From: an uncultured Candidatus Hydrogenedens sp.
GTDB lineage: Bacteria > Desulfobacterota_D > UBA1144
Length of the DNA stretch: 64,000 nucleotides
Reading direction: 5' to 3'
NCBI GenBank assembly: GCA_902609885.1
Contig: CACLTT010000006.1
Location: 6,802-70,801 of the forward strand
In this document: piece by piece, positions 1 to 32,918 of the stretch
Position numbering within the stretch: position 1 is the first letter of the stretch
How the letters are laid out: every line of letters begins with the position of its first letter
Program-made: the position numbers and the translations under genes
The notes under the pieces: model-generated
Seen by the model: only the letters and a program-made list of their open reading frames with translations
Databases searched by the model: none
Told to the model about the DNA's origin: nothing

Positions 1-148
1 AATACCCTTTTTCATAGGATCTTTGGGTTTTAAAAGTTTAATTAAAAAATTTAATAATAAGTCAAAAATTTACTATTTTTTCGGAAATTTCATGGGTTTT
101 TTATTAATTATTTTTGGTATTGTTGTATTTAACAATAAAATATATATA

Positions 149-177
149 TTGAACCTATATTTTCAAAAGTTTATAAA
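149..177 (+). promoter_or_regulatory. candidate sigma70-like promoter (TTGAAC-N17-TATAAA) upstream of the malic-enzyme operon
   Basis: TTGAAC at 149-154, a 17-nt spacer, and TATAAA at 172-177, about 88 nt upstream of the ATG at 265. Hexamers resembling promoter elements are common in AT-rich DNA. Confidence 0.3.
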
Positions 178-264
178 TTTTTTAAATAATTTTTTTATTT
201 AATTTTGTTCTAATTTTTATTATTTAATGTAAAATTTATTAATTGCTTTAACAGGAGTATTATT

Positions 265-1581
265 ATGAGTGAAGAGACCAAGAATGACGGGATAGTAAAT
301 AGAAGAGAAGAAGCCTTAGATTATCACTCCAAAAATCCGAGTGGAAAAATTGAAATAAAAGTTACTAAAGCAGCTGAAACTCAAGATGAATTATCTCTAG
401 CTTATTCACCTTGGGTTGCAGAACCATGTAAAGAGATACATGAAGATGTGCAAAATGTTTATAAGTATACCAATAAAGGAAACTTAGTAGCTGTTGTATC
501 AAATGGAACAGCAGTATTAGGGTTAGGCGATCTTGGTCCTGAAGCTAGTAAGCCTGTTATGGAAGGTAAGGCCGTATTGTTTAAGCGATTTGCTCAGGTA
601 GATGCCTTTGATATAGAAATTAAGACAACAGATGTTGATGAAATTATCAGGACAGTCGAACTACTTGAACCAACATTTGGAGGAATTAACCTTGAGGATA
701 TAAAGGCGCCTGAATGTTTCAGAATTGAGGATGAGCTTAAAGAGAAAATGAATATACCTGTTTTTCATGATGATCAACATGGAACTGCTATAATTTCTGC
801 AGCAGGTCTTGTAAATGCCTGTGAATTAATTGGAAAAAAAATGGCAGAAATAAAAATTAATATAAATGGTGCTGGTGCATCTGCCATATCTTGTGCAAGA
901 TTGTTTATTACTCTTGGGGCTAATCCTAATAATATACTTATGTGTGATAGTAAGGGAGTTATATATAAAGGTCGAGAAAATTTAAATAAACAGAAAGAAG
1001 AATTCGCTGTTGAAACGGATTGTAGAACCTTAGAAGATACTTTTAAAGCATCTGATGTGTTTATTGGTTTGTCTATTGGAAATGTAGTTTCAAAAGATAT
1101 GGTCTTAGATATGAATGATAATCCAATAATTTTTGCAATGGCAAATCCAGATCCAGAAATATCTCCTAAAGATGCTTTTGAAGCTAGGCAAGATATTATT
1201 ATGGCAACAGGAAGAACTGATTATCCAAATCAGGTAAACAATGTTCTTGGTTTTCCTTTCATTTTTAGAGGAGCATTAGATGTTGCAGCAACTGAAATTA
1301 ATGAGGAAATGAAAGTAGCTGCGTCATTAGCTTTGGCTAAATTAGCAAAACTCGGAGCATCAAAAGATATAGCAAAACGACATAATCGAGAAGAATTAGT
1401 GTACGGTAAAGATTATATTGTACCCTCCCCTTTTGATCCTAGAGTTCTTGTATGGGAATCGTATGCTGTTGCAAAGGCGGCTATAGAAACGGGTGTAGCA
1501 CGATTAAAAATAGACTTAAATGAATACAAATCAAAACTAGAAAAAATGGCTGGAGTAGAACCACAAAATTTTGATGAATAG
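265..1581 (+). CDS. NAD(P)-dependent malic enzyme (short form, no PTA domain)
   Basis: 438 aa. Malic-enzyme motifs [15 protein letters not shown] and a Rossmann GAGASA segment are present. The ORF overlaps the next gene by 11 nt. Confidence 0.85.
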
Positions 1582-2014
1582 AAAGATATTTTTTTTATTT
1601 TTTATTTTCTTTTTTATCAACCCTAACTTACAATCAGCTCAATTAACTGAAGAATCATCTTTTTTTCTTAATTCGCTTGAGGGTGACGTTAAAGAAGCCT
1701 ATGATTATGCAGTAAAAAATCCAGAAATTTTGAGTAATTTTTCTTGTTATTGTGGATGTGAAAAAATTAAGCATACAAGTAATAAATCATGTTTTATCAA
1801 AAAAATTGATCAAGATATAATCCAGCTAACTAATCATAGTGTTTCTTGTCCAATATGTATTGATGTTGCTCTTACTGTAAAATATCTTACTCAAGATGGT
1901 TTTAGTTTGACAGAAATAAGATCCATTTTAGATGATGCTTATGTTGGTTACCCTACTACACAAACTAAATTAGAATTAAACGAGGGCTCTACAAAAAGCT
2001 GTTGCAATGAATAA
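1571..2014 (+). CDS. exported Cys-rich protein with PCYCGC-like motif (SCYCGC...H..S...CF...SCPIC)
   Basis: 147 aa with a hydrophobic N-terminal signal-like segment. The motifs FSCYCGCEKIKHTSNKSCF and HSVSCPICID resemble the PCYCGC-domain family (pattern recognised from memory). The gene is overlapped and translationally coupled to its neighbours. Confidence 0.55.
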   Translation: MMNRKIFFLFFIFFFINPNLQSAQLTEESSFFLNSLEGDVKEAYDYAVKNPEILSNFSCYCGCEKIKHTSNKSCFIKKIDQDIIQLTNHSVSCPICIDVALTVKYLTQDGFSLTEIRSILDDAYVGYPTTQTKLELNEGSTKSCCNE

Positions 2015-2561
2015 AATCTTATTTCTTGCTTTAATAATTATTTTCATAACATCATGTAATGGAGATAAAAAAATAAATTCACAATTCATCTTGATCAACA
2101 AAGTTATATCAAATGAATATGATTTAAAAAAATTTGAATATAAAGGATTGAGTAATCGTCGTGCAGCAGATAAGGCTTATATGCTAGAGTTAGAATTTAA
2201 AGAACTTAAAGGTTTCAATATAATCAATTTTTGGGCATCTTGGTGCTATCCATGTATAGAGGAAGTAGAAGATTTTAATGATTTTATAATACAGGAGAAT
2301 TCAAATTTAGAAATTATTGGTATAAATATTTTTGATGATTATGAAGAGGCTGAGAAGTTCATTTTATCGAATAAACCAGACTACCCTAATTTTTTTGATG
2401 AAACCAAAACAATTCCAATAGAATTTGGGGTTTCAGGTGTTCCCGAAACTTTTTTTTTGTATAACAACAGAATAATATATAAATATGTTGGTAAAATAAG
2501 TTCAGATAAAATAAGTGAGGGTCTAAGTAAAGCTTTTACATATGTCGAAAATAATAATTAA
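2007..2561 (+). CDS. ccmG: thiol:disulfide interchange protein CcmG/DsbE (TlpA-like thioredoxin)
   Basis: 184 aa with an N-terminal hydrophobic anchor and a WASWCYPC active-site motif. Confidence 0.75.
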   Translation: MNKILFLALIIIFITSCNGDKKINSQFILINKVISNEYDLKKFEYKGLSNRRAADKAYMLELEFKELKGFNIINFWASWCYPCIEEVEDFNDFIIQENSNLEIIGINIFDDYEEAEKFILSNKPDYPNFFDETKTIPIEFGVSGVPETFFLYNNRIIYKYVGKISSDKISEGLSKAFTYVENNN

Positions 2562-2898
2562 TTTATATCTTCTTATATTTATTCTAATAATTCCACTATC
2601 AACTTTAGCTAATAATAAAGTCTATGAAATTTCCAACGAATTAATGTGTCCTGTTTGTCAGGGTCAAACTGTTGCAGAATCTAATTCTGGCCTTGCGATA
2701 TCAATGAGAGAAGTTGTTAAAAAACAAGTTTCTGAAGGTAAAAGTAAAAAAGAGATTTTAAATTATTTTGTAAATATTTATGGTGATACTATTTTAGCTA
2801 CCCCACCTGCAAAAGGGTTCGGAATTATTTTATATCTATTTCCAATTCTAGTATTAGTTAGTTCAGTTTTATTTTGGATTAGAAGGTTCAATAAATGA
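2542..2898 (+). CDS. ccmH: cytochrome c-type biogenesis protein CcmH
   Basis: 118 aa. MCPVCQGQTVAESNSGLA matches the CcmH LRCxxCQNQSxADSNA signature, and a C-terminal TM segment is present. Confidence 0.8.
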   Translation: MSKIIINLYLLIFILIIPLSTLANNKVYEISNELMCPVCQGQTVAESNSGLAISMREVVKKQVSEGKSKKEILNYFVNIYGDTILATPPAKGFGIILYLFPILVLVSSVLFWIRRFNK

Positions 2899-4274
2899 TT
2901 TTTGATCAGAACTTTAAAAGGCTAAAAGTCATAAAAGAATCTACAAAGTTAGAAAAATTAAAAATAAATAAAAAAAGCTTTGTTGCATATTGGATGTCAT
3001 CTAATCAAAGGATTAATTGTAATTATTCTCTCAATGAATCTTTGAAATTAGCAAAAAGGTTAAAAGTTTTGCATAAAACATTTTTTATTTATAATTCTCA
3101 ACATTATAATTCACTTTCTAGGCATCATGAATTTATGTTGAATGGCTTAAAAGAGGTTAATAATCATCTAAATTCCTTAGGGCATCAATTATATTTTTAC
3201 ATTTATAGTGATTCATTAATAAAGTCAATATTAAAAAATTGTGTAAGTTTAGTAGTTGATTCAACTTATACAAGTAGAGCAAAAAAGTATCAAAAAAATA
3301 TTTTAGATAATCTGAATATTAATATATATTCCGTAGATAATCTTTATCTACCTGTAAAAAGAGTATCAGACAAACAAGAGTACTCGGCAGCGACCTTTAG
3401 AAAAAAATATTATAATGAATTAGAGGATAAACTTCATATTCATAAATTTGAAATACCTTTATTATTAAAAGAAGTTGATTCTATAAAGATCGAAAATAAT
3501 TTTACAGATATAATTAATAAAGAAATTAATTATTTAAAGACTGATGAATTTATAGATAAAAAAGTTGTTAATATTTCAGGTCCCATGTCAGCTGAAAAAG
3601 AAATTGATAGCTTCATTGACAGTAATTTTGATAGCTACGAGGAAAATTGTAGCAATCCTGAGTATATAAAAAATTCAACTATCAGTAGATTTTTACATTA
3701 TGGACAGATAACAGCGTCACAAATTATATCTAAATTAAATAAAAATATATCAATAGAGCACCCTTTTTTAGAGCAGCTCTTAATAAGAAGAGAATTGGCA
3801 TATAATTTTACTTTTTATAATGATAATTATAATAATTATAAATCTTTACCAAGTTGGGCTTTAAATACTCTTGAGAAACATCTGAGGGACAAAAGGGAAT
3901 ATATTTATGAATTAAGTGATTTTGAGTTTGCTAAAACGCATGATAAATACTGGAATACCGCTCAGATTCAACTTCTTACAACAGGCTATATTCATGGATA
4001 TATGAGAATGTATTGGGGTAAAAAGATTCTAGAGTGGACGCCAGGATATAGGGATGGAATAGAAATTGCGTTATATCTTAATAATAAATATCAATTAGAT
4101 GGTAGAAATCCCAATAGTTATGTTGGTGTTCTGTGGTGCTTTGGATTACATGATAGAGCTTGGCGAGAAAGAAATGTTTATGGAAAAATTAGATATATGA
4201 ATGATAATGGATTAAGAAGAAAATTTGATATAGAAAGATATGTTAATTTTTTCAATCAAAGAGAGCTATTTTAA
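2895..4274 (+). CDS. phr: deoxyribodipyrimidine photolyase, class II (CPD photolyase)
   Basis: 459 aa. VAYWMSSNQR matches the class II N-terminus. The C-terminal GYIHGYMRMYWGKKILEW...LDGRNPNSYVGVLWCFGLHDRAWRERNVYGKIRYMN is the class II FAD-binding signature. ATGA overlap with ccmH. Confidence 0.85.
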   Translation: MIFDQNFKRLKVIKESTKLEKLKINKKSFVAYWMSSNQRINCNYSLNESLKLAKRLKVLHKTFFIYNSQHYNSLSRHHEFMLNGLKEVNNHLNSLGHQLYFYIYSDSLIKSILKNCVSLVVDSTYTSRAKKYQKNILDNLNINIYSVDNLYLPVKRVSDKQEYSAATFRKKYYNELEDKLHIHKFEIPLLLKEVDSIKIENNFTDIINKEINYLKTDEFIDKKVVNISGPMSAEKEIDSFIDSNFDSYEENCSNPEYIKNSTISRFLHYGQITASQIISKLNKNISIEHPFLEQLLIRRELAYNFTFYNDNYNNYKSLPSWALNTLEKHLRDKREYIYELSDFEFAKTHDKYWNTAQIQLLTTGYIHGYMRMYWGKKILEWTPGYRDGIEIALYLNNKYQLDGRNPNSYVGVLWCFGLHDRAWRERNVYGKIRYMNDNGLRRKFDIERYVNFFNQRELF

Positions 4275-5198
4275 TAAAAATTTTTCAAATTTTTTACTGT
4301 ACTTAAAATTAACAATATTTTTATTTTCAAAAGAAATAAATAAAGGGAAATTTTGATTTAAGTTATCATTTTCTAACAATTTATCAATATCCATCAAATT
4401 TAAAGTGTTTGCCAAAATATCATTATTAGAGTTTGAATTTGTTGCAACAATTATTATCAAATCATCGCGAACTGCCAATTCATTATCCTTCATATTCAAA
4501 TTAAAAGTATATAAATCTTTATCTAATTTATAAACAGAATATGAGTCAATTAAATTAAAATTAATTTGGTCAAATATATAACTTGGCAATTCGATATATT
4601 CTGAATCTTTTAATTGATAGTTGTACTTTGTAATAACTTTATCAAAGGTAATTGCAAATTTATCTAATTTTTGACTAATTAAATAATCTTTAATATTATC
4701 TACGATTATCCCTTTTATAATTGAATCAAAGCTTAATTTTGTACATTTCTGCTTTTTAGAGAAAACATTGTTTATTTTAATTTTAATATTTGTCATTATT
4801 GTACATCTTGAATGAACCTCAGATTTTAAGTAATAATCTAATTTTTTAACTTTTTGACTTTTATTTAATAGTGTAAAAGATGTAGGATTAAATTTACCTT
4901 TAGTAATTTTATTGAAATCGTTTAATACTTTATAAGCATCTACAAATATATCTGGAGCTGAGACATCTGAGCTTTTCTCTAAATCATTAAATCTTGAAAT
5001 AAATGAACTTGAATCATATTCATTCAAAGCATCAGATATTTGATCAATTTTATTTTTAATTGCTCTCTTTTGGTCACCTGTTAGCGAATCAAGTGTATGA
5101 ATCTTAAGCTTTCTATCTATTATATTATATACTTTCGTGATACCATATGTGTCTATGCATGGAAATGCAATAAAAATAAATATAAGAATAAAGCGCAT
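4266..5198 (-). CDS. exported hypothetical protein (weak ApbE-like SRFN motif only)
   Basis: 310 aa with an N-terminal signal peptide (MRFILIFIFIAFPCIDTYG). The only family resemblance is EYDSSSFISRFN versus ApbE S-x-L-S-R-F-N, so a flavin-transferase assignment is tentative. Confidence 0.5.
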   Translation of the reverse strand: MRFILIFIFIAFPCIDTYGITKVYNIIDRKLKIHTLDSLTGDQKRAIKNKIDQISDALNEYDSSSFISRFNDLEKSSDVSAPDIFVDAYKVLNDFNKITKGKFNPTSFTLLNKSQKVKKLDYYLKSEVHSRCTIMTNIKIKINNVFSKKQKCTKLSFDSIIKGIIVDNIKDYLISQKLDKFAITFDKVITKYNYQLKDSEYIELPSYIFDQINFNLIDSYSVYKLDKDLYTFNLNMKDNELAVRDDLIIIVATNSNSNNDILANTLNLMDIDKLLENDNLNQNFPLFISFENKNIVNFKYSKKFEKFLLK

Positions 5199-5201
5199 TG
5201 A

Positions 5202-6071
5202 ATGATAAATTCTAACTTATACAAAAATACATTCAAAACTTCTTTTGAAGTTGTACCTCCAAAGTATGAAATTAATAATATTTTTTTAAAAAAATTAGTT
5301 AAATACTCTAATAAATTTGATCTTTTAGATCTAACCTGCTGTCCTATGGCAAATCTCAGAATAACGCCCATAAGTCTTGCCCACTTACTTATTAGCCAAG
5401 GAGTTAATTCTGAAAAAATTATCATTAACTTTTCCACCAGAGATAGAAATACATTAGCTTTACAAAGTGAGATATTAGGAGCTTTGGCAATGAAAATAAA
5501 CAAAATACTAGTTGTTAAAGGAGATAGAATAATTAAAGGTAATTCAAAAAAATCTAAAGAAGTCTTTGAGGTAAATACAGAAAAATTAATTAAAATTCTT
5601 TCAGATTTAAGAGAAGGATATGATTATAGTAAAAATAGAACAAATACTTCACTAAATTATGAAATATTCTCTACGCTCAATATTAACAAATCCTATAAAG
5701 AATTAAAAAAAATTATTAATCAAAGATTGAAACTGGGATCCAATTTTTTTATTACTCAACCAATCTACTCTGAAAGTGATTTTGAACTTATGTCAAAACT
5801 ATCTTTGAAAACAGATTATAAAATTTTATGCGGAATTCTACCTATAACTAACACTAAAGTTCTAAATAATGTTTTTAAAAAGCTAGGTGGTATTAATATC
5901 GATGCACAACATCTAAAAAAAATAAAAAAAATAGATGAAAATGAAATTTTTAATCATTCCAAAGAATATTTAAAAAATTTAATTAAAGTGTACAAAGATA
6001 ATTTGGATGGCATTCATATAATGACATCAGGTGATATATCTAAAGCGTTAAAATTAAAAGAGAATATATAA
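5202..6071 (+). CDS. methylenetetrahydrofolate reductase-like protein (MTHFR/MetF family, divergent)
   Basis: 289 aa. SFEVVPP matches MetF SFEFFPP. FITQPIYS matches ITQFFFD. ILCGILPITN matches IIPGILPVSN. GIHIMTSG matches DFHFYTLN. Confidence 0.6.
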   Translation: MINSNLYKNTFKTSFEVVPPKYEINNIFLKKLVKYSNKFDLLDLTCCPMANLRITPISLAHLLISQGVNSEKIIINFSTRDRNTLALQSEILGALAMKINKILVVKGDRIIKGNSKKSKEVFEVNTEKLIKILSDLREGYDYSKNRTNTSLNYEIFSTLNINKSYKELKKIINQRLKLGSNFFITQPIYSESDFELMSKLSLKTDYKILCGILPITNTKVLNNVFKKLGGINIDAQHLKKIKKIDENEIFNHSKEYLKNLIKVYKDNLDGIHIMTSGDISKALKLKENI

Positions 6072-6733
6072 TGCCAAACACAAAAGATACATTTAATTCT
6101 ATAGCAACAGTTTATGATAAAATCAATAATATTATTAGCTTGGGTAGGCATAAGAATTGGAAATCATTTTTTATCAGTAATATAAATTTTGAGGGAGAAA
6201 TATTAGATATTGCAACTGGGACAGGTGATATAATTTCATCAATTAAAAAGATCTATCCAAATACTAATTGCTATGGAATTGACCCATCAAAAAATATGCT
6301 ATATATAGCTAAGCAAAAATATAAAGATATTAATTTTATTGAAGGATATTCTGAAGACCTTCCATTTCCTGATAATAACTTTAATTTTATAACAATATCT
6401 TTTGGCATACGAAATACCTTATCTATTAATGAGTCACTTAAAGAAATTCATCGAATTTTGAAAAAAAATCAATATCTATTAATTATGGAATTTTCAAAAA
6501 CTGAAAATTTTTTTTTGAAAGTTTTTACAAATCTATATCTTTTTTTGATAATTCCAATTATTGGTCTTTTATATGGTAAATTTAAAGAATATTTTTATTT
6601 ATCAAGTTCAATAAGTAATTTTTATACTCCAAAAGAATTTCAAAAAATATTAGAAAATAATTTTTTCAATGTAGAATCAATCAATTCATTTAATTTTGGA
6701 CTTGTAACAATCTACAAAGCTAAGAAGATTTAA
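6071..6733 (+). CDS. ubiE: ubiquinone/menaquinone biosynthesis C-methyltransferase UbiE/MenG-like (class I SAM MTase)
   Basis: 220 aa. FNSIATVYDKINNIISLGRHKNWK matches the UbiE N-terminal motif, and DIATGTGD is SAM motif I. The start overlaps the stop of the upstream gene. Confidence 0.7.
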   Translation: MPNTKDTFNSIATVYDKINNIISLGRHKNWKSFFISNINFEGEILDIATGTGDIISSIKKIYPNTNCYGIDPSKNMLYIAKQKYKDINFIEGYSEDLPFPDNNFNFITISFGIRNTLSINESLKEIHRILKKNQYLLIMEFSKTENFFLKVFTNLYLFLIIPIIGLLYGKFKEYFYLSSSISNFYTPKEFQKILENNFFNVESINSFNFGLVTIYKAKKI

Positions 6734-7715
6734 AAGTTTCAAGAATTTGGTTTTGATAAAACTCTAATTTTTCTTCATTTAAATAATAATGTGGAGCTGT
6801 CAATATAGGTAAATCTAATATTTTTCTATATTTTGCAATTTCATCATTTACTTCCTCATCAGAACCAACAATTGCAAATTTTTCTACCATTTCATCACTT
6901 ACATTTTTTATCATTGAATCAATATCTTTATTGAAATAAGCTCTTCTTATTTTTTCTATATTTGAACCAAAACCAAGTTGCACAAAAGGTTCTGAATAAG
7001 CTTTTACAATTGAGTAAAAAGCTATCGTTCCCTTACAATCTTTTATCCCCTGAGCCTTATCACTATTAATAGCGCATAAAATTATTGATGAAACATGAGA
7101 ATCTTTATTTTTTTTTAAAGGAATTATATTATTTTTAAGATATTCTTTTGAACAAACAACATGTCCTAAATATCCATCCGACTCATTAAGAGCTATATTA
7201 GACATTTTAGGCCCTATTCCAGCAATCTTTATTGGAATCTGCTCTCTATGAGCCTTAAATGGCCTTTTAAAGGCTTTAATTTCTATTCTATGGAACTTAT
7301 CTGCAAATTCTATGTCTTGACCATTATATAGGCCATTTTGTATATTTTTTAAAATTTTAATTAATGAACTCATTCTTTCAGAAGGCTTATCAAAGTTTTC
7401 TGATCCATGCCATTTTCTGTTGGTATTAATAGCTCCTGATCCTAAACCCAATATTAATCTTCCATTTGATAAACTATCAATATCCATTGCCGAAATAGCT
7501 GTAATTAATGGGCTTCGAACAAAAGCTAATGTGACTGCTGATCCGATTTTTATATTTTTGGTTATTTCAGCTATAAATGTTAATTGCTCAAATGAAGAAC
7601 GGTAAAGTTCAGTAACCCAAGCAGAATGAAAGTTATAATTATCAGCCTTTTTTACAATTTCTTTTATATTTTTAAATGAATTAGGATCTAAAATTATTCC
7701 AAGATTATTATTCAT
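6720..7715 (-). CDS. luciferase-like monooxygenase (LLM-class flavin/F420-dependent oxidoreductase)
   Basis: 331 aa with the LLM fold pattern (ILGLGSG, TIM-barrel periodicity). Convergent 14-nt overlap with ubiE. Confidence 0.65.
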   Translation of the reverse strand: MNNNLGIILDPNSFKNIKEIVKKADNYNFHSAWVTELYRSSFEQLTFIAEITKNIKIGSAVTLAFVRSPLITAISAMDIDSLSNGRLILGLGSGAINTNRKWHGSENFDKPSERMSSLIKILKNIQNGLYNGQDIEFADKFHRIEIKAFKRPFKAHREQIPIKIAGIGPKMSNIALNESDGYLGHVVCSKEYLKNNIIPLKKNKDSHVSSIILCAINSDKAQGIKDCKGTIAFYSIVKAYSEPFVQLGFGSNIEKIRRAYFNKDIDSMIKNVSDEMVEKFAIVGSDEEVNDEIAKYRKILDLPILTAPHYYLNEEKLEFYQNQILETFKSS

Positions 7716-7726
7716 AATCTAATCTA

Positions 7727-8149
7727 CTATTTATCAGAAGTACTTGGTTGAACTTCTTCACTAACTTGAGATGCAACCTCTCTAAATGGGACATCTAAAC
7801 CAACAAGCTCAATTGCCGAAAGTGGTGCTGAGTCTCCTCTTCTATATGAAAGCTTGATAACTCGCGTATAGCCACCGGGTCTATCTATAAAACTTGGCGC
7901 GATAAACTCAAACAGATTCTTAAGAACGTCTCTGTTTTTTATTTTTGCATCTACAATTCTTCTAGACTGAACAGAATCAACCTTAGCAGTGGTTATCAGT
8001 TTTTCAGAAAATCTTTTTAACTCTTTTGCACGAGCATCAGTAGTAATAATTCTACCGTGTCGAAATAGCTCAGTAGCAAGGTTCTTCAACAAAGATAATC
8101 TATGTTGGGTCTTTAATCCAAGCTTACCTTTTCTAACTCTATGTCTCAT
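7727..8149 (-). CDS. rplQ: 50S ribosomal protein L17
   Basis: 140 aa, MRHR..KLGLKTQHRLSLLKNLATELFRHGRIITT, last gene of the alpha operon. Confidence 0.92.
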   Translation of the reverse strand: MRHRVRKGKLGLKTQHRLSLLKNLATELFRHGRIITTDARAKELKRFSEKLITTAKVDSVQSRRIVDAKIKNRDVLKNLFEFIAPSFIDRPGGYTRVIKLSYRRGDSAPLSAIELVGLDVPFREVASQVSEEVQPSTSDK

Positions 8150-9197
8150 TTACAAAACTCCCCTCTGAATCATCATTGGGCTCATCCTCTTTAAGCTTTC
8201 TTTGCTCATAATATAAATCTTTATTAATATCTTCTCCCAATCTAAGATTATATGAAGATATAACATCTCTAACTTCATTTAGAGATCTTTTACCAAAATT
8301 TTCCAAATTTAATAAATCTTCTTCGTTCAACTGAATAAGATCTCCAAGATATTTTATACTAGCTTTTTCTAAGCAATTTAATGACCTAGCAGAAAAATCT
8401 AGCTCTTCAATTTTTGTGAACAGAACATCTTCAGAACCTATTATTTCATCACTTTCTTCTTCAACAATTGGAATTGAATCAATTTCCTCTTCATCAAAAT
8501 TAACAAAAACAGACATTTGATCTTTTAGTATTTTTGCTCCATACGCCACAGCATCTTCTGGCAATAAAGTCCCATTAGTCCATACCTCGATAGTTAATCT
8601 TTCATAATCTGTTCTTCTACCAACTCTTGCAGCTGTTACATTGTAATTGACTTTTAGTACAGGGGAGAAAATAGAATCAACTAATATTTCTCCAATTGAA
8701 TGATTATTTTCATCTCTGGATTCCGTGGGCATATAGCCCCTACCCATCTCTATGGTCATTTCAATATCAAGTTTTGCACTGTCTGACAATGTAGCAATAA
8801 ATTGATTGTCATTAACAATTTCTACATTTTGATTTGTTTCAATATCTTTTGCTGTAACCTCACCTTCACCTTCATAACTTAAACTAATTGTCTGTGGATC
8901 GTAAGTATTCATTTTTAAATTTAATTTTTTTAAATTTAATATTATTTCAGTAACATCTTCTTTTACGCCTGTAATTGTTGAAAATTCATGCTGAACACCA
9001 TCAATTTTTACTTTAGTAATGGCTGGCCCCTGTATCGAAGAAAGTAATATTCTTCTTAAAGAATTTCCAATTGTTAGTCCATATCCTTTTTCAAGAGGCT
9101 GGCATATAAATTTTCCGTAAGTTTCAGATTTTGATTTTTGATCTATTTGTATGGATTTTGGCTTATATAAGCCAATCCAATTTCGCTGAAATTCCAT
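8139..9197 (-). CDS. rpoA: DNA-directed RNA polymerase subunit alpha
   Basis: 352 aa with NTD and CTD conserved motifs; follows rpsD. Confidence 0.93.
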   Translation of the reverse strand: MEFQRNWIGLYKPKSIQIDQKSKSETYGKFICQPLEKGYGLTIGNSLRRILLSSIQGPAITKVKIDGVQHEFSTITGVKEDVTEIILNLKKLNLKMNTYDPQTISLSYEGEGEVTAKDIETNQNVEIVNDNQFIATLSDSAKLDIEMTIEMGRGYMPTESRDENNHSIGEILVDSIFSPVLKVNYNVTAARVGRRTDYERLTIEVWTNGTLLPEDAVAYGAKILKDQMSVFVNFDEEEIDSIPIVEEESDEIIGSEDVLFTKIEELDFSARSLNCLEKASIKYLGDLIQLNEEDLLNLENFGKRSLNEVRDVISSYNLRLGEDINKDLYYEQRKLKEDEPNDDSEGSFVNET

Positions 9198-9206
9198 TTA
9201 TACTCC

Positions 9207-9836
9207 CTATAATTTAGAATAAAATTCAATAATTAATTGCTCATCAAGAGGTAATGTAAAATCATCTCTTGTGGGTAATCTTTTTACTAAACCACTTAGT
9301 TTATCTGAATCAAAATCAAGCCATTCTGGAACACCTCTTCTAGCGACAGACTCGACTGATTCTTTAATTCTTTTTTTGTCTTTACTCTTTTCTTTTATCT
9401 CAATTACATCATTAATTGAAATTAAAAAAGAAGGAATATCTACTTTTTTGCCATTTACTAATATATGCCCATGGTTTACATACTGACGCGCTTCATTTCT
9501 TGAACTAAGAAATCCTAAACGATATACAACGTTATCAAGTCTTCTTTCGAGATTAGAGATTAAATTATTTCCAGTAACACCAGATTGCTTATTTGACTTA
9601 ACAAAATTAATTCTAAATTGTTTTTCTGTTAGCCCATATATTCTTTTTAATTTTTGCTTCTCTCTTAATCTGATTGCATACTCAGAAGATTTCTGCCTAA
9701 ACTTCGATTGGCTCTGGCCAGGCAATATGTTTAGCCTTCTAGCAGCTTTATCGGAAAAAGATCTATCGCCTTTAAGAAATAACTCTTGTCCTTCTCTTCT
9801 TGATAATTTTGTGGTTGGTCCCGTATATCTTGCCAA
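9207..9836 (-). CDS. rpsD: 30S ribosomal protein S4
   Basis: 209 aa, MARYTGPTTKLSRREG; lies between rpsK and rpoA. Confidence 0.92.
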   Translation of the reverse strand: MARYTGPTTKLSRREGQELFLKGDRSFSDKAARRLNILPGQSQSKFRQKSSEYAIRLREKQKLKRIYGLTEKQFRINFVKSNKQSGVTGNNLISNLERRLDNVVYRLGFLSSRNEARQYVNHGHILVNGKKVDIPSFLISINDVIEIKEKSKDKKRIKESVESVARRGVPEWLDFDSDKLSGLVKRLPTRDDFTLPLDEQLIIEFYSKL

Positions 9837-27597: not shown

Positions 27598-27906
27598 TCA
27601 CTCCTTAATCTTAATTGTAATTTCATTTTCAAATTCTGGGAAATAATTATTAATGATACTTAATTCAAAAGCAGGCAGTATAGACGTATTAGGCTCTCTT
27701 TTTAATAAAAATTCAAAACTTAGTTCAATCAATTTTAATTTACTAATCTTTTTATTTGTCATTTTTTTATAAATATTATCGTCAAGATTTACTTTATGTG
27801 AAGTGGTAGTCCTATTTAAGACTTTAACTTCAAAATTATCATTATCTATTTTCTTAATATCAATTTTCAACTTATATTTTTTCCCTAGGTCTAAAATAAA
27901 AATCAA
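27598..27906 (-). CDS. hypothetical protein (102 aa, Lys-rich, no recognisable family)
   Basis: Clean ORF between purD and blh, overlapping the blh stop by 35 nt. Coding status is uncertain. Confidence 0.4.
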   Translation of the reverse strand: MIFILDLGKKYKLKIDIKKIDNDNFEVKVLNRTTTSHKVNLDDNIYKKMTNKKISKLKLIELSFEFLLKREPNTSILPAFELSIINNYFPEFENEITIKIKE

Positions 27907-28672
27907 TTAGAATCATATGTGGAACAGTCAATGCGGCAAGGCCAATAAATATAATTCTATAAATCAACTCTAAATCACCATAAGTATCCCGAAATAAATT
28001 GAATATAATAATTCCGATTGTCCAGCTAGTAAAAGTAAAAAGGCTAAATAGTTTTATTATTTTGGATCTCGAAATTCTTTTTTTTAATGAAGGGATAATT
28101 CTCATAAAATGATTAATTGTATGTATAAAACAAAAATAAATGGCAAAAGCTAATAAGGGATGAAGGAATAAAACTGATAAAATAATCAAAAATAATCTTA
28201 GAATATCAATTGTAGAAAGTTTTTCTAAATTTATAAATAGCCATGGTAAAAAACTTACCAATATTAACGAACCAATATTTATAAATAACCAGACAAAGTT
28301 GGTTTCAAATGATAATGACTTGAAAATAATATCAACTTGTATAGGACTTGTGATGCTAATTCCGAAAATAATGAGTCCTCCATTAATAAAACCTAATATA
28401 TATTTCTCTTTTTTATCACTCCAATTGTAGTCTCCAAGCCCGAAATGAAATATACTAATTAGTAGAAATAAAATTAAACTGATCTGTGGAAAATTAATCC
28501 ATAGAATTGTAACAAATATAGCTAATCCAATATAAATAAGAAAAAAATAAAATTTACTAAAAAAATCATTTTTTATATCTAGGCATATGCTTACAGCACC
28601 ATCTAAAGCACCATGAGGTAATCCAATTAAAATTATCATTAGAAGTGAGACTAAGGTAACAGTATCAATCAT
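27872..28672 (-). CDS. blh: beta-carotene 15,15'-dioxygenase (Brp/Blh family; retinal synthesis)
   Basis: 266 aa polytopic membrane protein. GLPHGALDG matches the Brp/Blh family signature, and the gene is adjacent to crtY. Confidence 0.8.
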   Translation of the reverse strand: MIDTVTLVSLLMIILIGLPHGALDGAVSICLDIKNDFFSKFYFFLIYIGLAIFVTILWINFPQISLILFLLISIFHFGLGDYNWSDKKEKYILGFINGGLIIFGISITSPIQVDIIFKSLSFETNFVWLFINIGSLILVSFLPWLFINLEKLSTIDILRLFLIILSVLFLHPLLAFAIYFCFIHTINHFMRIIPSLKKRISRSKIIKLFSLFTFTSWTIGIIIFNLFRDTYGDLELIYRIIFIGLAALTVPHMILIDFYFRPREKI

Positions 28673-29777
28673 TAAAGACGCACCTTATAAAAGATTTAAT
28701 AAATATTTTTGTTGGCAAGTTGAATATCATTTTTAATATTGGAATAATTCTTATTTTACTAGACATAAAAAAAGCCATATCATCGCCATTAAAAGACTTC
28801 CCAAAAGATTGAAATATTTGTGGAGCTTTCGAAGGATTAGATTTTAAAACATCAATAAAAATTCTATCCAAAAGATTAATTAATTTTGAATGAATTTTAG
28901 AATTATTTATTTTATGAGGTAAATTAATTTTTCTACATAGGTTTTTAACTTGTTTTTGAATAAAATAAAATGTATATCCCGACGAAATTCTATTTGCATT
29001 CCCTTTAAGTCCTAAATTTATAACGTTTGGAATATAATCATTTTTGAAAGAGGCTAAAGGGATAGCGCCTTTTTCTTCACTAATTATTTTAAATTTATTA
29101 ACTTTATATATTTCCCTTAAATATTTTTCCATGCTTTTATAATAGAATTCATCACTTTCAATTCTGTAAGAATAAATAGTAGGTTCAATTAAAGCCATTT
29201 TTTTAGTAATGGGCAGTAAATAGATAAACTGAATGCCATTAGATTGATCACATCTAAAATCCATTAATACAGCAGTAGAGTCATCAAAAATTTCATTTTC
29301 AGTTTCAATAATGAATCCTTTAAAATGTTGCAAATATGTATCAGTAGAAATTTGAAATGAACGACAGTCTATTATTATATCTGAATTTATTTTTTCTGAA
29401 TCTTTTCTGTAAAAAAAGTTGTTTTTATAACTTATATCTTCATCAAAAAAACTAACATTCTCATCATTAATATTATTTTTGCAAAATTGAATCCAATCAT
29501 TTCTTGAAGTTACGCAATATGGGTGATTATTTGATTGAAATAGAGTTTCATTTTCTTGATCAATAATCTTCCATTTTTCCCATTTATATTTTATTACATT
29601 TTCTAAATCATTAATATCCTCAAAACTCCAAAAACCCCAAAAATTATTATTTGATTTTTTTGAGCCTAAATAAAAATCTATAATATTTTTTCTGCATTTT
29701 GACAATTCCTTCACTATTGAATATCCTGCGCAACCACCTCCAAGGACGGATATGTTTCTATTATATTTAGTTTTCAT
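28665..29777 (-). CDS. crtY: lycopene beta-cyclase
   Basis: 370 aa with an N-terminal FAD/NAD dinucleotide motif (VLGGGCAG). 8-nt overlap with blh and 4-nt overlap with crtB. Confidence 0.75.
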   Translation of the reverse strand: MKTKYNRNISVLGGGCAGYSIVKELSKCRKNIIDFYLGSKKSNNNFWGFWSFEDINDLENVIKYKWEKWKIIDQENETLFQSNNHPYCVTSRNDWIQFCKNNINDENVSFFDEDISYKNNFFYRKDSEKINSDIIIDCRSFQISTDTYLQHFKGFIIETENEIFDDSTAVLMDFRCDQSNGIQFIYLLPITKKMALIEPTIYSYRIESDEFYYKSMEKYLREIYKVNKFKIISEEKGAIPLASFKNDYIPNVINLGLKGNANRISSGYTFYFIQKQVKNLCRKINLPHKINNSKIHSKLINLLDRIFIDVLKSNPSKAPQIFQSFGKSFNGDDMAFFMSSKIRIIPILKMIFNLPTKIFIKSFIRCVFND

Positions 29778-30637
29778 TTTAATAATATTTGAAACGATTC
29801 AAAAAATATTGTTTTAACTGTAATAATAAACTTTTTATAATTAGGTACAAAATATCTTTTATCTGACCAATTATAATTATTTTTTTTTATCAGTACTCCA
29901 ATCTCCCTATAAATATTTGCAGCAACAGATATACAAACTCTTGATCTGAAAGGAAGATAATGATAACCATTTTTGGCTCTATCATAATATCTATCGGCTA
30001 GAATAAGTATACTTCTAATTGTATCTTTTATAATCAAATAACTCTTTTCATCTTTTTCTATGAAAATGTTTTTAATTTTTTTTGAATCAATATCTTCACA
30101 TATATCTGATGGTAAATATTTTCTATTAGAGCATGCGTCCTCAAATACATCTCGAGATATATTGGTTAACTGCATTGCAATACCCAAATCAGCAGCATAG
30201 CTTTTTGCCTTATCATTATTAACTCCCAAAATAGGACACATCATAATTCCTACTGTTCCCGCGACTTTATAACAATAATTTATTAATTCATCAGTATTTT
30301 TAATTTGAATATTACTTTTCTGATCGAATATTAAACCATCAATAAAAGTTAAAAATACTTTCTTTGCATTGATATCAGATTTTAATGAGTTTATAAAGAT
30401 AATATGTTTATCCATTCTCATATCGATAAACTCAGAAACTTCGTTTTCTAAATATTTCTTTATATCTTCAAATATATTTTTTTCATTTTTTTCGTTATCT
30501 GCGATATCATCTAAATCACGCAAAATATAATAGAGTTCTGAAATATCATTGAATTTATTTTTATCTATTAACTTGGAAGCCCAATAGAAGGTCTTTCCGT
30601 TTTCTTTTAGTGATTCAGTTTTATTATTTAACTCCAT
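29774..30637 (-). CDS. crtB: phytoene synthase
   Basis: 287 aa, YCYKVAGTVG (YxxxVAGxVG), the Asp-rich DDIAD, and DVFEDACSNRKYLP. Confidence 0.85.
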   Translation of the reverse strand: MELNNKTESLKENGKTFYWASKLIDKNKFNDISELYYILRDLDDIADNEKNEKNIFEDIKKYLENEVSEFIDMRMDKHIIFINSLKSDINAKKVFLTFIDGLIFDQKSNIQIKNTDELINYCYKVAGTVGIMMCPILGVNNDKAKSYAADLGIAMQLTNISRDVFEDACSNRKYLPSDICEDIDSKKIKNIFIEKDEKSYLIIKDTIRSILILADRYYDRAKNGYHYLPFRSRVCISVAANIYREIGVLIKKNNYNWSDKRYFVPNYKKFIITVKTIFFESFQILLK

Positions 30638-32114
30638 ATCTCTTCTTTAATATATTTTCTACAACTTTAGCTGAGGATAAGACACCTGGTAGACCTGCAC
30701 CGGGATGAGACCCCGCAGCTGAAAAAAATATATTAGAAATATTATCATCTTCGTTATGATATCGAAACCATGCCGATTGTGTAAATTTTGGGGCAATAGA
30801 AAATCCTGCTCCATACATTGACCTATAATTATTTTCAAAATCTTTTGGAGTCATATAAGAAATATCCTCAATATGATTGGTCAAATTTGGCATTATAGTT
30901 TTTTCTAACTCAGTAATTATTTGATCTTTTAATTTTTCTCCATGAACTGCCCAGTCAATATTATTTTTTAAATTCGGAACAGGGCAAAGAACATAAAAAC
31001 TATCATGTCCATCTGGCGCAAAAGATTTGTCTGTAGCAGTAGGCCTATGAAGATATAAGGAAAAATCTTTAGTTATTATCCTTTTCTCAAAAATATCATG
31101 CAATAGATCTTTAAAGCGTTCAGTTAACCATATAGTATGGTGTGCGATTTTTTCATATTTAGTTTTAGTTCCAAAAAAAAGAACAAATAGTCCCATAGAA
31201 TATGATAGAGACTTTGCAGGAAAAATAGGATTAAGAAAATTTCTTAAAGCTGGTTTAAGAATTTCTTTATAAAAAACAGGTGGATCGCCATTAAAAACTA
31301 AATTATCAAATTTATATTCCTTCCCACATTCAGTGATTGCTTTATAAGCAAAGGAATCTTTATGCTCAACTGATTTTAAATTTTTATTCATTTCTATATT
31401 AATATCGTTTCTTCTCATAAGATTAGTCAGCTCTTCTACTAATTTTCCAGTTCCACCCATACAGAAAAATACACCCCATTTTCTTTCAAGGAAATGAATT
31501 AATGAGTAAATTGATGTTGTCGTATAGGGATTACCTCCAACCAACAATGGATGAATAGAAAATGCTGATCTTATATTTTTATTTTTAATGTGTCTTGATA
31601 CCATCTTGGAGACGCTTTGATAACTTTTAAGTTTTAACAAATAAGGTATTTGCTTAATCATTGTCCAAAATGATGAAAACGATTGGTCAGAAAGTTTTGT
31701 AAAGCCAATATTAAATATTTTTTCTGACTCCTTTAATAAATTATCATATGATTCTGCATCTTCTGGAGAAAATTTTGATATCTCTTTTTTAGTTTTCTCA
31801 ACAGTTGATGAATAATCAAAAGTTGTTGAATCATGAAAATGAAATCTATACCAAGGATCTAAGGGTTTAAATTCTAAATGGTCACTGAGTTTTTCATTAA
31901 ATAAATTAAATAATTCCTCAAATAAGAAAGGTGCAGTTATGACTGTTGGACCTGTATCATATTTATATCCATTTCTTTCAATAACCTGTGCTCTTCCACC
32001 GAGTTTAGATAATTTGTCAATTATAGTTACATTATGGCCCATAGCTTTGCACCTCAATGCAGCAGCAATTCCACCAAATCCACCACCTACGACAAGAGTT
32101 TTGACACTATTCAT
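30624..32114 (-). CDS. crtI: phytoene desaturase
   Basis: 496 aa, VVGGGFGGIAAALR FAD motif and the CrtI family C-terminus. Confidence 0.85.
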   Translation of the reverse strand: MNSVKTLVVGGGFGGIAAALRCKAMGHNVTIIDKLSKLGGRAQVIERNGYKYDTGPTVITAPFLFEELFNLFNEKLSDHLEFKPLDPWYRFHFHDSTTFDYSSTVEKTKKEISKFSPEDAESYDNLLKESEKIFNIGFTKLSDQSFSSFWTMIKQIPYLLKLKSYQSVSKMVSRHIKNKNIRSAFSIHPLLVGGNPYTTTSIYSLIHFLERKWGVFFCMGGTGKLVEELTNLMRRNDINIEMNKNLKSVEHKDSFAYKAITECGKEYKFDNLVFNGDPPVFYKEILKPALRNFLNPIFPAKSLSYSMGLFVLFFGTKTKYEKIAHHTIWLTERFKDLLHDIFEKRIITKDFSLYLHRPTATDKSFAPDGHDSFYVLCPVPNLKNNIDWAVHGEKLKDQIITELEKTIMPNLTNHIEDISYMTPKDFENNYRSMYGAGFSIAPKFTQSAWFRYHNEDDNISNIFFSAAGSHPGAGLPGVLSSAKVVENILKKRYGVK

Positions 32115-32162: not shown

Positions 32163-32918
32163 TTAAGCATCAACTTCAGTTGTAGCAGCAGCCCATATTG
32201 CTAAACAGAAACCGATTTTATTTATAAAATCTGCAACGTTATAAACTATATTAAGAGTAGCTTCATCAGTACCACCAGCTAAATATCCTAGAAAATACCC
32301 TAAAGGATAAATTGCCCAGCCTATAGTAACAATCCATTTCATTGTATTGAAAGCTGACTGAACCGAAGGTTTAGCATTTGCAGCACTTTTACTTGCTTCT
32401 CCAGAGAAGATCTCATACAGAATATAAGCCCAACCAGCCATACCTACAACAAAACCAATTGTTGTATTTATAAAACCAGCTTCACCCATATAACCTGCTA
32501 CAACCATAACAACAGTACCTATCAATAGTCTCCAAAAGACTCCCATAGAAACCGCAGTAACAGCAGCAAGAATAAGATAGAACTCAACCATCTGTAATGG
32601 AACAGTTACAATCCAATCAACGTATCTAAATACCGTTGGAGATGTACCTGTAGATGCCCATACTTCTCTCATGTAAAAATAGTGAACGCCTGCAACCAAA
32701 CAAATAAGTCCGCCAACAACCAATGATGTTCTAAATTTCCCTGTAACTCTTAAAGATTCAAGGAAAAAGAACGCTGTAGCGGCAACCATTGCAACTGATA
32801 TGATCCAGAAGGATATACCTACTGCATCATCCGGGGCTAAATTAGAACCAGCATATGATACTAATGGCATGCAAGCTATAATTGCGGAAAGTAAAAAGTA
32901 ATTTACATATTTTGACAT
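32163..32918 (-). CDS. proteorhodopsin (light-driven H+ pump; blue-tuned Q variant)
   Basis: 251 aa, 7-TM with a signal peptide. RYVDWIVTVPLQMVEFYLIL gives the D (acceptor) and E (donor) at the proton-pumping positions and Q at the tuning site. The retinal Lys lies in ADFINKIGF. A strong SD (AGGGAGG) is 7 nt upstream. Confidence 0.93.
   Translation of the reverse strand: MSKYVNYFLLSAIIACMPLVSYAGSNLAPDDAVGISFWIISVAMVAATAFFFLESLRVTGKFRTSLVVGGLICLVAGVHYFYMREVWASTGTSPTVFRYVDWIVTVPLQMVEFYLILAAVTAVSMGVFWRLLIGTVVMVVAGYMGEAGFINTTIGFVVGMAGWAYILYEIFSGEASKSAANAKPSVQSAFNTMKWIVTIGWAIYPLGYFLGYLAGGTDEATLNIVYNVADFINKIGFCLAIWAAATTEVDA

Follow-up and report, generated by a model that had tools for sequence, protein, structure and literature searches.

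A run of five overlapping genes, coding for a malic enzyme, a secreted PCYCGC-domain protein, a CcmG/DsbE-like thioredoxin-fold lipoprotein (Trx), CcmH and a class II cyclobutane pyrimidine dimer (CPD) photolyase, was analyzed in a 64-kb stretch of DNA (the window, taken at its whole length) from contig CACLTT010000006.1 of an uncultured marine bacterium. The results favor, with a probability of roughly three in four, the interpretation that these genes were brought together as a side effect of genome compaction in a streamlined marine Dadabacterium with proteorhodopsin, and that they are not a dedicated functional operon. The original prediction for this locus had considered that the arrangement may simply reflect streamlining, and this alternative was supported by the ORF (open reading frame) coverage, the frequency of overlapping junctions and the comparative gene order.

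The window organism is a streamlined, photoheterotrophic "marine pelagic I" Dadabacterium, since its nearest relatives are marine Dadabacteria and the window carries proteorhodopsin, crt and blh genes. Ribosomal protein and rpoBC clusters were also present. In a CcmH-based scan with one genome per species, the closest relatives were the marine Dadabacteria metagenome-assembled genomes (MAGs) NAT430 and SP78 (94% identity), followed by other marine Dadabacteria MAGs (58–69%) and by non-marine Dadabacteria/"Thermodesulfobacteriota" as the next-nearest group (46–58%). The same neighborhood was found on related contigs of ~1.045 Mb. Marine Dadabacteria genomes have been described as ~1.2 Mb in size with a coding density above 96%, pelagic I being photic and photoheterotrophic and its sister clade, pelagic II, being devoid of rhodopsin and living below ~100 m (Graham and Tully, PMC8115339).

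The ORFs of the window, called mechanically, covered 98% of it. Overlaps were found at 28 of the 65 same-strand junctions (43%) and at four of the seven convergent pairs, and 49 of the 65 same-strand junctions were spaced by 10 nt or less. The run of four overlaps at the five-gene locus was accompanied by a run of eight among the ribosomal protein genes and another of four in the crt operon, where all of the junctions from 27598 to 32114 overlap (by 35, 8, 4, and 14 nt). When 28 overlaps were ordered at random among 63 junctions, a run of at least four arose in 80% of the orderings (P = 0.80). Since overlaps and runs are this common across the window, the run at the locus is unremarkable, and the overlaps are background in this genome, not signal. 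The high ORF coverage, the 43% of overlapping same-strand junctions and the stringing together of unrelated functions are shared with the streamlined marine genomes of the SAR11 type and of marine Dadabacteria (PMC8115339), from which the locus differs in nothing essential, being one example among them.

The comparison of gene order covered 59 species-level loci, taken as CcmH-centered neighborhoods of ±10 kb (denoted by L and a number); 40 CcmH loci were of Dadabacteria type. All of the marine Dadabacteria loci shared one backbone, consisting of ccdA, the malic enzyme gene, trx, ccmH, a slot of variable content, an ApbE-like gene (minus strand), MTHFR, UbiE, and a luciferase-like oxidoreductase gene (minus strand). 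The trx and ccmH genes were adjacent in 38 of the 40 Dadabacteria-type loci and overlapped by 8–47 nt in every marine locus; this pair is the only ancient unit of the run. In L036, a 2-Mb non-marine genome, the order was a second thioredoxin-like gene (trx2), ccdA and the malic enzyme gene on the plus strand, PBP1 and the trehalose-P synthase/phosphatase genes OtsAB on the minus strand, trx and ccmH on the plus strand and MiaA on the minus strand. The malic enzyme gene and trx-ccmH were thus separated in this genome by ~5 kb holding the penicillin-binding protein and trehalose-synthesis genes on the opposite strand. The adjacency of ccdA and the malic enzyme gene is old, because it is present in L036, and the contact between the malic enzyme gene and ccmG in marine genomes is explained by the loss of the intervening ~5 kb. 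The neighborhood comparison that had been suggested as a check therefore left trx-ccmH as conserved and the photolyase, the PCYCGC gene and the malic adjacency as clade-specific, so that the five genes did not hold up as a functional unit. As a further variable element, trx2 was located directly upstream of ccdA in some pelagic I genomes (L003, 4539–5030; L008, 6478–6942) as well as in L036, and was absent from other pelagic I genomes and from pelagic II.

The photolyase gene occupied the slot after ccmH only in L002–L013 and L066–L071, among them NAT430, SP78, and NAT53, and was found near CcmH in no other CcmH locus of any phylum sampled. Table S2 of PMC8115339 gives SP78 and NAT53 a score of 1 for both blh and rhodopsin, credits NAT430 with blh alone, and assigns 0 for both genes to UBA1144, SAT211, NAT509, NAT510, and TMED58. 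In these last five the slot was empty or filled by an unrelated 355-aa (amino acid) gene, with no photolyase there. The specific coupling of photorepair to periplasmic thiol redox proposed in the original prediction was not borne out by this distribution, as the photolyase follows ccmH only in the rhodopsin-bearing pelagic I clade and the sister clade has either nothing or the 355-aa gene in its place. No donor lineage could be named for the photolyase, whose homologues outside pelagic I level off at 38–44% identity over many phyla. Many pelagic II genomes have the gene of the 355-aa slot protein, a soluble product without a Pfam match, after ccmH, and one pelagic I subclade has it after the photolyase. 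It was located at 9715–10782 in L005, and in the same slot in L012–L015, L017–L019, L021, and L023.

The overlaps of 4–20 nt first reported for the five ORFs were all real, with one start codon revised. At the junction between the malic enzyme and PCYCGC genes, ATGAATAG, an ATG at 1574 and the stop TAG at 1579–1581 give an overlap of 8 nt, which would be 11 nt only if the upstream TTG at 1571, the start originally chosen, were used; the ATG is preferred because the homologues begin with MNRKIFF. The junction between the PCYCGC gene and trx, ATGAATAA, also overlaps by 8 nt (ATG 2007, TAA 2012–2014). The overlap is 20 nt between trx and ccmH (ATG 2542, TAA 2559–2561) and 4 nt between ccmH and the photolyase gene (ATGA, 2895–2898), and the 3' end of the latter overlaps the convergent ApbE-like gene by 9 nt. 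Trx and CcmH have no in-frame start further upstream, and the N-termini of the PCYCGC protein, CcmH, and the photolyase agreed with those of their homologues.

Table 1. Coordinates of the five genes, their predicted upstream signals and other features of the window.
Feature	Position	Strand	Basis or remark
ccdA 3' end (DsbD_TM family thiol-electron transporter), cut by the window edge	2–202	+	match to SP78 CcdA
TGTAAAAT, extended -10-like promoter motif (predicted), in the 62-nt ccdA-malic spacer	228–235	+	conservation
AGGAG Shine-Dalgarno site	253–257	+	pairing ends 6 nt before the malic enzyme start
Malic enzyme, NADP-type, short form without PTA domain, 438 aa	265–1581	+	PF00390 and PF03949
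PCYCGC-domain protein, secreted, 146 aa, function unknown	1574–2014	+	PF13798
CcmG/DsbE-like thioredoxin-fold lipoprotein (Trx), 184 aa	2007–2561	+	AhpC-TSA/Redoxin/Thioredoxin and lipobox
CcmH, 118 aa, hydrophobic segments at N- and C-termini	2542–2898	+	PF03918
Class II CPD photolyase, 459 aa	2895–4274	+	TIGR00591
ApbE-like gene, convergent, terminates the unit	4266–5198	-	PF02424
crtI/crtB/crtY/blh	27872–32114	-	in the window, after proteorhodopsin
Proteorhodopsin	32163–32918	-	in the window

The identities first assigned to the five genes all held against Pfam and NCBIfam profiles and solved relatives. Both Pfam domains of the malic enzyme scored above threshold (malic, 108 bits; Malic_M, 70 bits). 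It aligned to NF009501 over residues 13–427 and matched the N-terminal 423 positions of the NADP-malic enzyme model, and was therefore classified as the short form. The PCYCGC protein reached 72.4 bits against PF13798 (cut-off 25) and 67.1 bits against the NCBIfam CYCXC family NF041379, under the cut-off of 90. The Trx motifs WCYPC and GVSGVPETF aligned with those of Bradyrhizobium japonicum CycY (1KNG, E = 6e-13), with E. coli CcmG second among the solved relatives, and its top-scoring NCBIfam family was TIGR00385 at 58.9 bits, below the trusted cut-off of 123.15. CcmH matched PF03918 over residues 24–116 (98.8 bits, cut-off 25) and resembled the solved CcmH of E. coli (2KW0, E = 9e-13) and of P. 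aeruginosa. In its redox motif LMCPVCQGQ the Arg is replaced by Met, and both Cys and the following GQTVAESNS were invariant in 14 homologues, whose alignment had 30 invariant columns.

The photolyase aligned with positions 5–451 of the 453 of TIGR00591 (397.2 bits, trusted cut-off of 550.05 not reached). Among the solved class II enzymes it matched those of M. mazei (8OET/2XRY, E = 1e-81) and rice (3UMV, E = 1e-67). Its segments YWNT, HGYMRMYWGKKILEW, and YLNNKY align with what we take to be W360, W381, W388, and N403 of the M. mazei enzyme MmCPDII, the class II Trp triad and the Asn at the N5 position of the flavin (FAD) being conserved in this alignment. The locus enzyme is like the known class II CPD photolyases 2XRY and 3UMV in its full-length similarity (E = 1e-81) and in these residues, and differs from them in its ~40% identity, its score below the NCBIfam cut-off (397 vs 550 bits) and an antenna cofactor that is not inferable. 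Since both the CcmG-like Trx and the photolyase fall below the strict NCBIfam cut-offs, they are superfamily members and not certified equivalogs.

All five genes were under purifying selection, with ratios of nonsynonymous to synonymous substitution (dN/dS) ranging from 0.02 to 0.26 (against SP78: malic enzyme 0.02, PCYCGC 0.12, Trx 0.26, CcmH 0.14, photolyase 0.10). The malic enzyme showed 83–99% amino acid identity across marine Dadabacteria vs 41–95% for Trx, and its gene has a GC content of 32–37% vs ~26% in its neighbors; the high conservation and raised GC would be consistent with high expression.

On the upstream side, 64 of 66 residues (97%) of the ccdA fragment, missed in the original prediction, were identical to the CcdA C-terminus of SP78 (L008), and a DsbD_TM gene holds the same position in relatives. 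The malic enzyme gene is thus immediately preceded by the gene of a thiol-redox partner. Downstream, the ApbE-like gene was kept at the same position in all of the marine Dadabacteria loci; its product covers just the N-terminal half of its Pfam model and is not matched by any NCBIfam family. The UbiE gene and the luciferase-like oxidoreductase gene (6720–7715, minus strand) form a convergent pair overlapping by 14 nt. An Rfam search of the whole window returned five tRNAs only.

A promoter-like motif and a Shine-Dalgarno site were both conserved upstream of the malic enzyme gene only. The putative promoter TGTAAAAT was kept in the window, L066, L008, L068, L067, L010, and L011, even though synonymous sites are saturated in the more distant of these. 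The AGGAG duplex with the anti-Shine-Dalgarno sequence has an energy of -6.9 kcal/mol, and Shine-Dalgarno use is appreciable in the window, 45% of the genes reaching -6 kcal/mol or lower vs 7% of control positions. Within the run this malic enzyme site is the only well-spaced one; the photolyase gene has a weak AAGG at -6, and the PCYCGC, trx, and ccmH genes have GGAG/GAGG at best 17–20 nt upstream. A GAGGG occurs exactly 20 nt before the ATG of both trx and ccmH (1982–1986 and 2517–2521), beyond the canonical Shine-Dalgarno distance and maybe by chance.

Internal terminators or promoters had been named in the original prediction as findings that would refute it. A scan of positions 1–5300 for terminators found no sites, and a sigma-70 promoter scan of the same region gave 39 hits vs 37.8 expected, which is uninformative in this 26% GC DNA. 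Co-transcription of the five genes is likely, because the run is free of gaps and of terminator-like sites, is followed by a convergent gene and has conserved upstream signals at the malic enzyme gene only. The overlap of the internal genes with their predecessors and their lack of a well-placed Shine-Dalgarno site make translation by termination-reinitiation plausible. One transcript with reinitiation at the overlaps would be the most economical reading, and it would fit many other runs in the genome equally well. Of the traits of a coupled operon, a common strand, stop/start overlaps and freedom from internal terminators were all found, as they were in 43% of the same-strand junctions; conservation of order beyond close relatives was found across Dadabacteria only for trx-ccmH. 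From the "one transcription/translation unit" originally proposed, likely co-transcription was retained and the functional unit was not.

The PCYCGC protein was examined through its family, PF13798, which comprises ~945 clusters at 50% identity and, according to reviews, includes selenocysteine (UxxC) forms. In 30 diverse members the residues Y43, C58, C60, C62, H67, C73, H88, C92, and C95 were invariant; all nine are present in the window protein, giving the pattern CYCGC...H...C...H...CxxC (Cys6His2). An AlphaFold model built from eight sequences (pLDDT 71) gave nothing below E = 3 in a Foldseek search of the PDB. A word-based homologue search returned pelagic I relatives only, and among the species-level CcmH loci PCYCGC stood beside trx-ccmH in pelagic I only. 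A metagenome scan with an alignment of eight PCYCGC sequences detected the order PCYCGC-trx-ccmH in three non-pelagic contigs, L072–L074 (CcmH 50–54% identical). Because of this recurrence, PCYCGC is probably an old partner of trx-ccmH, lost from many lineages, and not a light-specific addition. In L073, a 427-kb contig, the three genes come right after those for a CusC-like OEP, a CusB-like fusion protein carrying a YtkA domain, an RND pump of CusA type and a c-type cytochrome (70–7475).

A WOR-3 locus, L063 (1–5841), had the order CcmF-CcmH-x-x-PCYCGC-x-CcdA-Fer4_5-PCYCGC. Both of its PCYCGC proteins have an extra N-terminal domain of ~120 residues, whose T-S-C-G/K-C motif recalls DUF1573, also a selenoprotein family. 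A census of 136 neighbors of PCYCGC genes at 42 non-pelagic loci, approximate because ORF calling is imperfect in GC-rich contigs, was headed by cupredoxin/COX2-like domains (10 and 9 members), Fer4_5 membrane proteins (6) and CDF cation-efflux proteins (5), followed by redoxins (3), cytochromes c (3), P-type ATPases (2), and CcmH (2). At L094 (6001–8172), L099 (1085–3244), and L138 (2791–4981), PCYCGC was followed by a membrane protein of ~620 aa with an N-terminal cupredoxin/COX2-like and a Fer4_5 polyferredoxin domain; L094 and L099 also had a weak thioredoxin-like match upstream. These neighbors would point to a periplasmic metal- or redox-handling role, as a lead only. In the TlpA-ScoI/CoxB system of Bradyrhizobium, a periplasmic thioredoxin keeps copper-site cysteines reduced. 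By analogy, the locus may combine a thioredoxin-like protein with a Cys-rich, probably metal-binding periplasmic client, whose genes often adjoin cupredoxin and metal-efflux genes; however, PCYCGC is unrelated to Sco, its copper role is putative and the parallel is a lead only.

The compaction interpretation can be laid out as follows. The conserved core is the thiol-reduction pair of the ccmG-like trx and ccmH, whose products, judging from their families, may receive electrons from CcdA, as in the canonical pathway, and maintain the CXXCH cysteines of apocytochrome c in the reduced state at the outer membrane face. The malic enzyme gene, near ccdA already in large-genome relatives, would have come to abut ccmGH through the loss of the ~5 kb between them. 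The same reducing pathway probably has the PCYCGC protein, which is secreted, of Cys6His2 type and possibly metal-binding, as a client or partner, and the class II photolyase, at the variable slot after ccmH, may have been gained by the photic clade or kept there alone. Gene loss would thus have pressed together an old ccdA-malic neighborhood, the ancient ccmG-ccmH pair with PCYCGC, and the photolyase, with transcription most likely running from TGTAAAAT through all five genes. There is no sign of a mechanism that would tie photorepair to periplasmic thiol redox.

Several observations weigh against this interpretation. The ccdA-malic adjacency, as old as L036 suggests, may allow a functional tie such as NADPH supply, and the 39 promoter-like hits leave room for internal promoters. 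It is mainly in the light-exposed clade that the pair is flanked by PCYCGC and the photolyase, a picture that selection for a light or oxidative-stress unit would also give. The tight packing is kept in every pelagic I locus examined. In addition, the continued service of Trx-CcmH in cytochrome c maturation System I is questioned by the lack of ccmABCEF within ±10 kb in any Dadabacteria locus, and CcmABCD is listed as absent from both marine clades (PMC8115339, Table S6).

Alternatives were weighed as well. It is improbable that the photic clade assembled PCYCGC, CcmG, CcmH, and the photolyase behind one promoter for joint production, on the proposal that surface UV and photochemical oxidants damage DNA and oxidize periplasmic thiols. 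Such a unit would account for PCYCGC and the photolyase standing beside ccmGH in the rhodopsin-bearing clade and not in the deeper sister clade, for an order and packing maintained in every pelagic I locus examined, down to 59% CcmH identity, and for the proteorhodopsin and retinal genes of the same window. However, PCYCGC-trx-ccmH also occurs without the photolyase in non-pelagic contigs, one of them labeled sediment, L002 has the photolyase without PCYCGC, the unrelated 355-aa gene continues the same run in part of pelagic I, regulator sites and light-sensor genes are absent, and overlaps are the genome-wide norm. It is exceedingly improbable that the apparent overlaps were produced by mis-called starts or a chimeric assembly, given that Trx and CcmH have no alternative in-frame starts, that PCYCGC, CcmH, and the photolyase begin as their homologues do, and that the same layout was present in at least 10 independent assemblies; on these grounds the wrong-start artefact was rejected. 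Chimeras or recombinants do exist at this locus, L002 (ENA contig k119_512018) switching abruptly inside ccmH from pelagic II-like to window-like sequence. The region concerned is 7940–8469 of this contig. The part up to the ccmH signal peptide is pelagic II-like (Trx 39% and malic enzyme 88% identical to the window, no PCYCGC, ccdA apparently split into two short ORFs), and from the mature CcmH domain into the photolyase the identity to the window lineage is ~95%. Either the assembly is chimeric here or recombination took place within ccmH.

A further alternative concerns the role of the conserved pair. As originally observed, ccmF, ccmE, and ccmABCD are not nearby: with Chloroflexi queries, CcmA/B/C/E/F were detected neither in the 64-kb window nor within ±10 kb of ccmH in any Dadabacteria-type locus, and the gene of the CcmF haem lyase, the partner with which CcmH works, was accordingly adjacent to ccmH in none of them. 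CcmH stood beside CcmF in several Chloroflexi-type and other non-Dadabacteria loci, L055 and L059 having a full Trx-CcdA-CcmE-CcmF-CcmH-CcmABC cluster. A scan of all window ORFs for CXXCH motifs found none, and a literature search on Dadabacteria cytochrome c biology returned nothing specific. The E. coli CcmH has a long TPR-containing C-terminal part that has no counterpart in the 118-aa CcmH. With the System I thiol-reduction branch (CcdA/DsbD to CcmG to CcmH, as in E. coli, Rhodobacter, and Bradyrhizobium CycY) the locus shares all three components, the CXXC motifs, the CcmG signature GVxGxPETF and the CcmH fold signature. In contrast, it has no adjoining ccmABCDEF, its CcmG is a lipoprotein instead of being anchored by an N-terminal helix, and its CcmH is a short form with LMCPVC in place of LRCxxC.

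It is doubtful that pelagic Dadabacteria lost the haem-handling genes of System I and keep CcdA-CcmG-CcmH for another periplasmic reducing job, the candidate clients being the Cys-rich PCYCGC protein or oxidase copper-site cysteines. Table S6 of PMC8115339 has CcmABCD in the hydrothermal and organic-carbon clades and not in pelagic I or II, and in its KEGG-Decoder table the marine MAGs have cytochrome c oxidase at 0.75 and the bc1 complex at 0. The lack of ccmABCEF at ~40 Dadabacteria-type loci and in the window, and of any CXXCH ORF in the latter, points the same way, as do a stand-alone Trx-CcmH-CcdA cluster without CcmF in Gaiellaceae and the company of PCYCGC elsewhere, namely cupredoxin/COX2-like domains (10 of 136 neighbors, 42 loci), Fer4_5, CDF and P-type ATPases, and the CusCBA-like genes of L073. 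However, distance is uninformative on ccm loss, because ccmGH already lie apart from the other ccm genes in non-marine Dadabacteria that have CcmABCD according to PMC8115339. The CcmH redox motif and the 30 columns are invariant, CcmH is 41–45% identical to CcmH of Chloroflexi and others, some in full System I clusters, and calls based on KEGG orthology can miss genes in divergent AT-rich MAGs. The fuller claim, that CcmABCD and perhaps CcmE and CcmF were lost and that CcdA, CcmG, and CcmH persist under strong purifying selection outside cytochrome c maturation, is unlikely; keeping PCYCGC, as a putative metal (copper?) factor, or the oxidase copper-site cysteines reduced would be one possibility.

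The compaction interpretation carries a caution for streamlined genomes, in which overlapping stop and start codons and runs of mixed function are the default and not evidence of functional coupling. Within marine Dadabacteria, the class II photolyase marks the photic pelagic I clade, as the proteorhodopsin and retinal genes do. The residual interest of the locus lies in the PCYCGC association and in the status of System I in this lineage. The recurrence of PF13798 beside CcdA, thioredoxin and CcmH genes, and more often beside cupredoxin and metal-efflux genes, is a hint of a periplasmic redox or metal role, and if CcdA, CcmG, and CcmH do act outside cytochrome c maturation, this would be the first functional context for this uncharacterized family.

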